DNA from: Candidatus Schekmanbacteria bacterium RIFCSPLOWO2_02_FULL_38_14
Lineage (GTDB): Bacteria > Schekmanbacteria > GWA2-38-11
Direction: 5' to 3'
DNA length: 29,302 bases
NCBI GenBank assembly: GCA_001790855.1
Contig: MGDH01000001.1
Span: forward strand, 79,427-108,728
The position numbers were made by a program, and so were the translations under genes. This document shows positions 4,974 to 6,920 of this stretch, one piece after another; the stretch's first letter is position 1, and every line of letters starts with the position of its first letter. The notes under the pieces are model-generated. The model searched no databases. It was not told the origin of the DNA and saw only the letters and a program-made list of their open reading frames with translations.

Positions 4974-6920
4974 ATGATAATAAAATATTTTTACAAAGTA
5001 CAAAGTAAAATGATTAAACCAAAAGCGAGAATATATATGCGTTTTAAATCTATCATATTCTATCTTATAATATTTTTAATCCTGTTTTTCACAGAATTTC
5101 CTTATGAATGTCAGAGTTTTACTGCCAATGTTGATATAGGGACAGGATCAATCGTTTTTAACCCTACTATTTCAGGTACTGTGATAGTCGGTGGTGCAGG
5201 TTTATCCGGTGTTACGGTTTCGGATGGGACGAGGTCCGCTATAACAGGTGCAGATGGTACTTATACGATTACAGGTGTTCCGGTTGGTACTTATACTGTA
5301 ACACCATCTAAGACAGGTTATAGTTTTTCACCTTCATCAAGTTTACAAACAGTATCCGGCGCAAATGTTACCGGAGTTGACTTTACAGCAACATTAATTA
5401 CCTATTCTATTTCAGGCACTGTGACAGTAGGTGGTGCAGGTTTATCCGGTGTTACGGTTTCGGATGGGACGAGGTCCGCTATGACAGGTGCAGATGGTAC
5501 TTATACGATTGCAAGTGTTCCGCTAAATAGTTATACTATAATACCATCTAAAACAAGTTATAGTTTTACACCTTCATCAAGTTTACAAACAGTATCCAGC
5601 GCTAATGTTACCGGGGTTAATTTTACAGCAACGTTGATTACTGAGCCAACTTATACTATTTCAGGCACTGTGACAGTAGGTGGTGCAGGTTTATCCGGTG
5701 TTATAGTTTCGGATGGGACGAGGTCTACATTTACAGATGCAAACGGTAATTATACCATTATTAATGTTTCTGCCGGTACTTATACTGTGGCACCATCTAA
5801 GACAGGTTATACTTTTACACCTTCATCAAGTTTACAAACAGTATCCGGCGCTAATGTTACCGGGGTTAATTTTACAGCAACATTAATTACCTATTCTATT
5901 TCAGGCACTGTGATAGTAGGTGGTACAGGTTTATCCGGTGTTACGGTTTCGGATGGGACAAGGTCTGCTATGACAGGCGCAAATGGTACTTACACAATTG
6001 CAGGTGTTCCGCCTGCTAGTTATGCTGTAACGCCATCTAAGACAGGTTATACTTTTACACCTTCATCAAGTTCACAAACAGTATCCGGCGCTAATGTTAC
6101 CGGGGTTAATTTTACAGCAATTTCAACAACAACAACAACAACAACAACAACAACAACAACAACAACAACAACAACAACAACAACAACAACAACAACAACA
6201 ACAACAACAACAACAACAACAACAACAACAACAACAACTACTACTACTACTACTACTACTACTACTACGACTACAACTGAGGCACCGACAACAACGACCT
6301 CAACAACTTTTTCAACTACGACAACAACGACCTCAACAACAACTACTACGACTACTACTATAATATGCAGCAATACGATTCCTGAAATTTCACAAGTCAA
6401 CCCAAGCAAGGGTCGTTATGGAAGCAATATAACAATTACTGGAAAAAATTTCTGCGATGCAGAAGGTCTTGTAGTTTTCGTGAAGTTTGGAACAGACGAC
6501 ATTGAGGCACCTGTCTTAGACTGGAAAGATGAGAGCATTGAAATCTCTGTGCCATGGGGATGTAAACCAGGAATAAATAAAATTAAGGTAATTACCGCCT
6601 TTGAAAATGAAAGTAATTTATATCCTTTCAAATTCATAAAACTGTTACCAAAAATTAATAAGATATTTCCTAAAAAAGGAAGATTTGATTCAGAAATTGA
6701 GATTAGCGGAATAAATTTTGGTGAAGAAAATGAAAATAGCTTAGTGCTGTTTAATCAGGTTGAGGCTGGTATTCTTTCCTGGGATGTTGAAAACATTGTT
6801 GTTGAAGTACCTGAGATGGTGGTTGGAAAAAACGGAAGAGTTGTTTCAGTTAAAGTAAAGACTACGTATGGGAGTAGTAATGTTAAGAAGTTTAAAGTAT
6901 TGCCGACTCAAGGTAAATAG
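4974..6920 (+). CDS. large secreted cell-surface protein: signal peptide, 4 tandem CarboxypepD_reg-like (prealbumin-fold) repeats, ~51-residue poly-Thr linker, 2 C-terminal IPT/TIG domains
   Basis: 648 aa ORF with a hydrophobic N-terminus (FKSIIFYLIIFLILFF); the likely true start is ATG 5010 or 5037. Four 80-82 aa repeats GTVxVGGAGLSGVTVSDGTRSAxTGADGTYTIxxVPxGTYTVTPSKTGYSFTPSSSLQTVSGANVTGVNFTA. The T51 run is followed by two IPT-like modules (IPEISQVNPSKGRYGSNITITGKNF; INKIFPKKGRFDSEIEISGINFG). Confidence 0.85.
   Translation: MIIKYFYKVQSKMIKPKARIYMRFKSIIFYLIIFLILFFTEFPYECQSFTANVDIGTGSIVFNPTISGTVIVGGAGLSGVTVSDGTRSAITGADGTYTITGVPVGTYTVTPSKTGYSFSPSSSLQTVSGANVTGVDFTATLITYSISGTVTVGGAGLSGVTVSDGTRSAMTGADGTYTIASVPLNSYTIIPSKTSYSFTPSSSLQTVSSANVTGVNFTATLITEPTYTISGTVTVGGAGLSGVIVSDGTRSTFTDANGNYTIINVSAGTYTVAPSKTGYTFTPSSSLQTVSGANVTGVNFTATLITYSISGTVIVGGTGLSGVTVSDGTRSAMTGANGTYTIAGVPPASYAVTPSKTGYTFTPSSSSQTVSGANVTGVNFTAISTTTTTTTTTTTTTTTTTTTTTTTTTTTTTTTTTTTTTTTTTTTTTTTTTTTEAPTTTTSTTFSTTTTTTSTTTTTTTTIICSNTIPEISQVNPSKGRYGSNITITGKNFCDAEGLVVFVKFGTDDIEAPVLDWKDESIEISVPWGCKPGINKIKVITAFENESNLYPFKFIKLLPKINKIFPKKGRFDSEIEISGINFGEENENSLVLFNQVEAGILSWDVENIVVEVPEMVVGKNGRVVSVKVKTTYGSSNVKKFKVLPTQGK
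5160..6125 (+). repeat. 4 tandem ~240-bp near-identical coding repeats (5160-5399, 5400-5639, 5640-5885, 5886-6125)
   Basis: Long near-identical strings recur at the repeat period, e.g. tttcaggcactgtgacagtaggtggtgcaggtttatccggtgttacggtttcggatgggacgaggtc. Confidence 0.8.
6126..6266 (+). repeat. perfect trinucleotide microsatellite (ACA)37 followed by (ACT)10, in-frame (poly-Thr)
   Basis: Counted directly: ACA codons from 6126 to 6236, ACT codons from 6237 to 6266. The Thr-rich segment continues (ACG ACT ACA ACT ...) to about 6360. Confidence 0.9.

Follow-up and report, generated by a model that had tools for sequence, protein, structure and literature searches.

A Long Perfect Trinucleotide Repeat in the Threonine Spacer of a Predicted Exported Protein from Candidatus Schekmanbacteria

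The subject of this analysis is a single gene of Candidatus Schekmanbacteria bacterium RIFCSPLOWO2_02_FULL_38_14, together with the long trinucleotide microsatellite that it contains. The gene lies on the forward strand of a stretch of 29,302 nucleotides (contig MGDH01000001.1, positions 79,427 to 108,728), which we refer to as the window and whose first letter is position 1 in all coordinates given here. Its product is predicted to be exported by the Sec pathway, contains no catalytic domain recognized by Pfam and would consist, from N- to C-terminus, of a signal peptide, a conserved 14-residue motif, four CarboxypepD_reg beta-sandwich units, a threonine-rich spacer and a pair of IPT/TIG domains (Table 1). 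The first 47 codons of the spacer form the perfect compound repeat (ACA)37(ACT)10, and our analysis centers on this tract and on the different lengths at which it is assembled in one and the same population.

Table 1. Position of the gene, its parts and its upstream neighbour in the window, with the basis of each assignment.
Feature	Position	Strand	Basis
LEA_2-domain neighbour	4327..4848	+	Pfam LEA_2, E 7e-19; membership of the same system lacks support
Promoter-like site TTGACA-17 nt-TATTTT	4963..4991	+	Consensus scan, 10/12 matches; number of such sites in the region not above shuffled sequence
Longest open reading frame (ORF), 648 aa	4974-6920	+	ORF list
Most likely coding sequence, 627 aa plus stop	5037..6920	+	Alignment to L022:1982-2860 starts at Met1 of both
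Predicted Sec signal peptide MRFKSIIFYLIIFLILFFTEFPYECQS	5037..5117	+	Hydropathy scan; sole hydrophobic segment of the protein
Conserved N-terminal motif FTANVDIGTGSIVF	5118..5159	+	Common to L022:1982-2860 (FIAHVDPTAGTIVF) and the neighbouring L022 lipoprotein (FRGHVDIEKGTITF)
CarboxypepD_reg unit R1 (74 aa)	5169..5390	+	Pfam PF13620, unit alignment
CarboxypepD_reg unit R2	5409..5630	+	Pfam PF13620, unit alignment
CarboxypepD_reg unit R3, most divergent of the four	5658..5879	+	Pfam PF13620, unit alignment
CarboxypepD_reg unit R4	5898..6119	+	Pfam PF13620, unit alignment
Perfect (ACA)37	6126..6236	+	Exact regex count
Perfect (ACT)10	6237..6266	+	Exact regex count
Mixed-codon Thr/Ser-rich remainder of the spacer (TTTT EAPTTTTSTTFSTTTTTTSTTTTTTTT)	6267..6359	+	Translation, codon list; identical in all covering assemblies
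Two IPT/TIG beta-sandwich domains, C-terminal module	6360..6917	+	Pfam TIG, AlphaFold2, Foldseek, alignment
TIG1	~6381-6638	+	
TIG2	~6651-6899	+	

The initial annotation of this DNA, made by a model from the letters and an ORF list, described the tract as perfect, in frame and encoding about 51 threonines, and an exact count bears this out to the base. The compound tract is 141 bp long and, with the codons that follow it (ACG ACT ACA ACT), encodes 51 consecutive threonines, from 6126 to 6278. Tandem Repeats Finder places pure trinucleotide arrays at 6124-6238 and 6237-6278, and the tract is the sole microsatellite of at least 15 bp in the 29.3-kb window. The complete spacer, which lies between the CarboxypepD_reg array and the TIG pair, has 78 residues of which 70 are threonine (51 in the run and 19 in the remainder). 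ACA and ACT make up 47 and 23%, respectively, of the threonine codons in 16 other genes of the window, and with such a usage the probability of 37 ACA followed by 10 ACT among 47 threonine codons is P ~10^-18. Hence the tract is not the outcome of codon choice, and we infer that it arose by slippage.

Microsatellites of this kind had also been called rare in prokaryotes, and the literature agrees, as trinucleotide tandem repeats, even those of at least four units, are strongly suppressed across prokaryotic phyla, and long simple sequence repeats (SSRs) are linked to host dependence (PMC4060949). A metagenome scan for (ACA) runs of at least 20 units returned at least 120 matches, almost all of them in short-ORF, eukaryote-like contexts, with the coding examples (a retroelement and a vWA mucin-like protein) also looking eukaryotic, and it provided neither a prokaryotic parallel nor a usable frequency. 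Given the suppression of trinucleotide repeats in prokaryotes and the almost entirely non-coding or eukaryote-like setting of the metagenomic tracts, the present case stands out as unusual, though not as a phenomenon of a new type.

By means of the exact GyrA, CoaD or LEA_2 proteins of the window, about 25 different contigs belonging to its population were gathered from NCBI, JGI, ENA and Logan assemblies, all of them products of short-read assembly (L numbers denote contigs or loci retrieved and P numbers proteins retrieved). Where they align with the window, over as much as ~13 kb, their identity to it is 99.5-100%. Up to 13 contigs other than the window cover part of the gene, and outside of the microsatellite they are all identical, save for one single nucleotide polymorphism (SNP; 6096 G>T in L017) and runs of N in L013. 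The array of four units is also of equal length in L001 and L017, which span the whole gene, and in L012, which covers the whole array. In contrast, the tract is assembled as (ACA)37/(ACT)10 in the window, (ACA)22/(ACT)10 in L001, (ACA)24/(ACT)7 in L002, (ACA)10/(ACT)9 in both L003 and L007, (ACA)22/(ACT)5 in L017 and (ACA)23/(ACT)5 in L148, so that the seven tract-spanning contigs represent six combinations, some of which may have been collapsed in these short-read assemblies. The assembled threonine runs are thus 23, 31, 32, 35, 36, and 51 residues long. Contigs that enter the tract from one side have at least 24, 17, 16, and 14 ACA units, (ACT)9 is found in five more contigs that include the IDBA-type scaffolds L004, L008, and L009, and one assembly, ERZ4903137, holds both (ACT)5 (L148) and (ACT)9 (L005). 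Differences in repeat number within one population, which the initial annotation had anticipated, are therefore found in the tract, while the rest of the gene is constant apart from the one SNP. A scan of metagenome contigs with the unique right flank found nothing.

The real start of the gene is most likely the ATG at 5037 rather than position 4974, because BLASTP pairs Met1 of the homologue encoded at L022:1982-2860 with Met22 of the 648-aa ORF, where the homology begins, and because a promoter-like site is present at 4963-4991. The N-terminal 41 residues are 49% identical to the N-terminus of this homologue, which has the typical n/h/c layout of a signal peptide and ends in SQS/F (the slash marks the putative cleavage site). 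A hydropathy scan of the window protein gives an h-region of 14-15 residues that is followed by the conserved QS/F, and the segment resembles a Sec signal peptide that would be cleaved off more than it resembles a membrane anchor. Directly after it comes the pattern S-F-x-[AG]-[NH]-V-D-x3-G-[ST]-I-x-F (5115-5159 in the window and 2060-2104 in L022), and the motif is absent from 285 other fetched proteins. The same motif occurs a further time at L022:2903-3330, in an unrelated lipoprotein of 1085 residues that is encoded beside the L022 homologue. Neither a lipobox, a sorting signal nor a C-terminal hydrophobic segment was found in the window protein by NCBIfam search and hydropathy scan, the sole NCBIfam match being to an S-layer glycoprotein and far below threshold (17 bits, cut-off 1400). 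Nor was there any feature in the protein that would target it to the outer membrane.

The assignment of two IPT/TIG domains to the C-terminal end, also made in the initial annotation, is confirmed by both sequence and predicted fold. Pfam finds IPT/TIG (PF01833) in two stretches (E 1e-12) at 48.3 bits, above the gathering cut-off of 20.9, and AlphaFold2 folds the C-terminal 186 residues into two all-beta domains (pLDDT 93.5, pTM 0.82). The top PDB matches of this model in Foldseek are plexin/MET IPT tandems (probability 1.00), and matches to the Ig-like domains of Bacteroides SGBP-B are found as well. An exhaustive HMMER search gives thousands of distant TIG arrays and a few close relatives of 45-54% identity. 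In every one of these relatives the TIG pair forms the very C-terminal end of the protein, has two invariant Cys residues and ends in YGxSNxKKFKVL. The pair is found behind unrelated N-terminal parts, namely three to four choice-of-anchor D domains in P0242 and P0263 and NHL repeats in P0250. The homologue at L022:1982-2860 has a signal peptide, the N-terminal motif, a Thr/Ser spacer of ~60 residues and the TIG pair, without CarboxypepD_reg units; it is 50% identical to the window protein over the spacer and TIG pair, and its spacer is encoded by mixed Thr/Ser codons with no trinucleotide run of more than three units. In L025, too, a threonine tract directly precedes the TIG pair. Because the L022 protein shares the signal peptide, the motif, a mixed-codon spacer and the TIG pair but has no CarboxypepD_reg units, we take these four shared elements to be the ancestral design, to which the four units and the pure microsatellite would be recent, lineage-specific additions in the Schekmanbacteria.

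The combination of N-terminal motif, threonine spacer and C-terminal, Cys-bearing TIG pair is found in only ~10 sequences. A word-indexed search with the TIG pair as sole query recovered nothing but a 123-aa piece of the window protein itself, a scan of genome contigs with the pair gave only a spurious match in Prevotella, and exact look-ups of the 648-, 636-, and 627-aa forms of the protein had no match, the 633- and 628-aa length variants being likewise missing from the protein collection searched. Two observations concern how such genes are represented. In short-read assemblies, Thr-rich tracts are points at which unrelated GC-rich DNA becomes attached (L005 and L025:286-640), and gene callers start genes for TIG-pair proteins at an internal Met just past the threonine tract (P0279 and probably P0203). 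Internal start calls and assembly breaks at threonine tracts thus hide the true architecture of these proteins in the databases. Choice-of-anchor D domains owe their name to the fact that they precede different C-terminal sorting signals, and in P0242 and P0263 the TIG pair sits where choice-of-anchor D proteins usually carry that signal, which hints that the pair may be a new C-terminal attachment module.

The four repeats of ~240 bp with long identical runs that were noted in the initial annotation are also clearly present. Tandem Repeats Finder reports a period of 240 bp in 3.9 copies (5167-6120), and Pfam assigns CarboxypepD_reg (PF13620) to four stretches (E 1.4e-17) at 64.3 bits, above the gathering cut-off of 32.3. 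Each unit is 222 nt long; any two agree at 86-90% of their nucleotides and 77-84% of their amino acids, and the identical runs that they share reach 53 nt. Synonymous divergence (dS) between units is 0.13-0.27 and the ratio of non-synonymous to synonymous divergence (dN/dS) is 0.43-0.94, with the differences clustered in one loop-like patch. A search with the full protein gave 2,819 matches, the best of which are at most 56% identical and cover the repeats only (57% of the query); among the matches listed there is no orthologue and generic CarboxypepD_reg arrays dominate. The four units are far closer to each other than to any external match. They had been described as recently homogenised, and while the low dS bears out a recent origin, the similarity fits plain duplication as well as gene conversion, the two being indistinguishable here. 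The linkers between R1 and R2 (5391-5408) and between R3 and R4 (5880-5897) are identical 18-mers (ACATTAATTACCTATTCT, TLITYS), that between R2 and R3 is 27 nt long (TLITEPTYT), and Tandem Repeats Finder also reports a period of 489 bp without indels in the array; the two identical linkers and the indel-free 489-bp period suggest that the array passed through a two-unit duplication step. A diversity-generating retroelement or other targeted hypermutation of the variable patch was considered and set aside, as the units are constant between assemblies, dN/dS is below 1 and the Pfam annotations of the window, which were not complemented by a dedicated search, include no reverse transcriptase.

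We propose, with moderate confidence, that the gene encodes an exported protein of the beads-on-a-string type in which a spacer of slippage-variable length separates the N-terminal modules from the TIG pair. In this scheme slipped-strand mispairing during replication would add threonine codons to, or remove them from, the (ACA)n(ACT)m part of the spacer, and the frame would be kept because the unit is 3 nt, so that the population would carry alleles that differ only in the length of the spacer (23-51 threonines in the assembled runs). The threonine tract would be extended and flexible, and its length may determine how far apart, and how flexibly joined, the N-terminal modules and the TIG pair are. 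Cnm, SDR proteins and the Ser/Thr-rich disordered regions of streptococci offer an analogy for its possible O-glycosylation.

That the tract exists is certain: at least 24 ACA units are contiguous in L002 and L006. Less certain is the figure of 37, which is just one among the six values given by the assemblies; the real length may be another, or there may be more than one. Several observations weigh against the proposal made above. No gene for a glycosyltransferase, for secretion or for anchoring is found by domain annotation among the genes of the window or in ~7 kb of additional flank in L011. The cell-surface position and the O-glycosylation that the initial annotation read into the protein are not supported. 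Nine contigs or more break off within the gene, the ACA tract of NCBI scaffold L004 is interrupted by a gap of 20 N, L005 is chimeric at the tract, where its first ~100 nt (in gene orientation) are unrelated GC-rich Thr-linker sequence, and the last ~60 nt of L148 are A-to-C sequence noise. Such breaks, gaps and chimeras show that assemblers cannot handle the region, and as the tract lengths are known from assembled contigs only, some of the alleles may be products of collapse. One could then argue that the population has a single long tract of at least 37 units that short-read assemblers have collapsed, broken or mis-joined, and that the variability is not real; most contigs do stop in the gene or in the tract, and an unrelated threonine-tract chimera is also seen in L025. 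By our reasoning, when a de Bruijn loop collapses, the run left behind is the shortest one in phase that still reaches k, and it is never shorter than k. The (ACA)10 allele, a period-3 run of 33 nt, matches the common k of 31 or 33, and with k at the MEGAHIT values of 21 and 29 the smallest in-phase runs possible are 23 and 29 nt, those of (ACT)7 and (ACT)9. All three are suspect, since k explains (ACA)10 and possibly (ACT)7 and (ACT)9. However, ACA counts of 22, 23, 24, and 37 correspond to no standard k, and (ACT)5 cannot be a product of collapse because its run of 17 nt is shorter than any usual k, and it is present in two separate assemblies (L017 and L148). Furthermore, no run of (ACT)9 or (ACT)10 exceeds 32 nt, so that any read of 100-150 nt crosses it, two ACT alleles occur together in one assembly, and a graph branch arising from real alleles would also explain why contigs break exactly here. 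We therefore regard a purely artefactual variability as unlikely and a real length polymorphism in the population as probable.

The orientation of the protein is a separate matter. The initial annotation saw the TIG domains as the distal end of a surface protein, which requires an N-terminal anchor: the hydrophobic N-terminus would stay in the membrane, the repeats and the threonine tract would form a stalk and the TIG pair would be its tip. The protein does have a single hydrophobic segment, at its N-terminus, and has neither a C-terminal hydrophobic segment nor a known sorting signal, but the h-region is short for an anchor, the polar c-region has small residues at -3/-1 (CQS/F, with SQS/F in L022) as in cleavable signal peptides, and the Cys in it is outside any lipobox. 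In addition, an outer membrane is probable in the host because an LpxC domain is encoded in the window, and an inner-membrane anchor would then leave the protein in the periplasm and not on the surface. The distal position of the TIG pair, itself a conserved C-terminal module, is thus not upheld, and we consider an N-terminally anchored stalk quite improbable. Should one of the two ends serve for attachment, the TIG pair is the likelier candidate, and a topology in which this pair is the cell-proximal attachment or sorting module, with the threonine spacer projecting the array and the N-terminal motif and slippage tuning their reach, appears at least as plausible as one with the pair at the distal tip. 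In line with such a reversal, the closest homologues of the 186-aa module all carry it at their extreme C-terminus, behind unrelated N-terminal parts (P0263, P0242, P0250, and L022), choice-of-anchor D domains are known to precede C-terminal sorting signals, and the cleavable-looking signal peptides of P0263 and L022 would leave the N-termini free. Nevertheless, the module has no match among known sorting and anchoring families, and the IPT tandem fold that it adopts is generic, with plexins and SGBP-B using it simply as a spacer. Neither a partner nor a secretion system was identified, and the family has only ~10 known members. Hence we put forward the reversed topology tentatively, as a possibility on the unlikely side. 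A bolder version of our proposal would make the gene an adaptive contingency locus, in which slippage generates spacer-length variants that, for example, evade phage or predators or tune adhesion distance, and in which attachment to the envelope is by an unrecognised C-terminal TIG-pair module shared with choice-of-anchor D and NHL-repeat proteins; this we regard as a highly speculative and very doubtful extension.

The slippage-variable spacer that we favour has parallels in several known systems. As in SSR contingency loci, there is a perfect repeat of a short unit in a coding region, repeat number would vary within the population between constant flanks (as it does among the assemblies here) and slipped-strand mispairing is the expected mechanism. 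Classic contingency loci, a typical property of host-adapted pathogens, have units of 1, 2, 4, or 5 nt whose frameshifts turn the gene on or off, whereas the unit of 3 nt would change length only, with no on/off switch, and the host in the present case is a free-living, uncultivated groundwater bacterium. Like Cnm of Streptococcus mutans and the staphylococcal ClfA/Sdr proteins, the window protein, if exported as predicted, has a long repeat of hydroxy amino acids between folded beta-sandwich modules. The Thr-rich and SD repeats of such Gram-positive adhesins are O-glycosylated, protected from proteases and thought to be spacers that span the wall, with 25-275 SD repeats (PMC5856776, PMC3794999). 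However, Cnm and ClfA/Sdr possess an LPXTG anchor, a ligand-binding domain and glycosyltransferases (Pgf and SdgA/B), none of which were found for the window protein in the window and the L011 flank, and their repeats have longer, degenerate units in place of a pure trinucleotide microsatellite. Membrane-associated proteins of streptococci have Ser/Thr-rich extracytoplasmic disordered regions whose glycosylation shields them from proteolysis (PMC12041528). These are similar in that a Thr/Ser-rich segment, here extracytoplasmic by prediction, is attached to folded domains, but they belong to another phylum and envelope type and are mostly terminal tails that are not encoded by microsatellites, while the spacer in the window protein is internal. 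As for the folded modules, the protein passes both Pfam thresholds and so joins thousands of metagenomic proteins with CarboxypepD_reg (PF13620) or IPT/TIG (PF01833) arrays. Among 120 listed matches, PF13620 arrays often adjoin enzyme domains such as Peptidase_S8 (PF00082) and GH16 (PF00722), in contrast to the window protein with its lack of a catalytic domain.

Proteins identical to the GyrA, CoaD, and LEA_2 products of the window occur in metagenome-assembled genomes of Candidatus Schekmanbacteria (GWA2_38_9 type, aquifer groundwater), and the neighbours of the gene are of a housekeeping or miscellaneous nature (rsmD-like, coaD, HIT, LEA_2, gyrA, an aldo-keto reductase, a sigma-54 regulator, a histidine kinase, and dprA). 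The gene immediately upstream had been read as a LEA_2-like lipoprotein forming a joint variable cell-surface locus with the gene considered here. The LEA_2 domain stands, but the cysteine context of the protein (...LLLFSPVSC, with Pro at -3) is close to, and not, the canonical lipobox [LVI][ASTVI][GAS]C. The shared variable locus does not hold, as the LEA_2 gene is invariant across the assemblies of the population and no LEA_2 gene adjoins the homologue in L022. Two ORFs that overlap the gene, 6047-6409 on the minus strand (poly-Val) and 6094-6363 on the plus strand (poly-Gln/Leu), were dismissed as shadows of the repeat, and a search of the window against Rfam matched no RNA family.

Three loci further away are worth recording in their own right. 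The LpxC domain mentioned above is in the 732-aa product of 10778-13015 on the minus strand, for which the precomputed Pfam list gives Response_reg, Sigma54_activat/AAA and LpxC, an odd fusion for an NtrC-type regulator. At 25360-29301 on the plus strand, a frame of at least 1314 aa that is still open at the end of the window has a signal-like N-terminus, RHS_repeat (E 4.7e-75, six stretches) and DUF6531, and its predicted product is an RHS/YD-repeat toxin-like protein. Just upstream of window position 1, L011:3494-6452 contains a cluster of Transglut_core3, radical SAM, HPr_kinase_C-like and PqqD that looks like a biosynthetic locus for a ribosomally synthesized and post-translationally modified peptide of the lasso-peptide-like kind.

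Our analysis presents a well-documented case of a long perfect trinucleotide repeat in an uncultivated, free-living aquifer bacterium, while long SSRs have so far been tied mostly to host-adapted pathogens, and, to judge by the public assemblies, the gene is frozen except at the repeat, which would be its one site of fast change. There is also a practical lesson, in that most short-read assemblies break, leave a gap or form a chimera at the tract and gene calls are cut short there, and a small protein family is therefore nearly invisible in the protein databases. If reads confirm the length differences, the tract would provide a natural strain-level length marker for Schekmanbacteria populations, and it would represent spacer-length variation in a predicted exported protein outside the world of pathogens.

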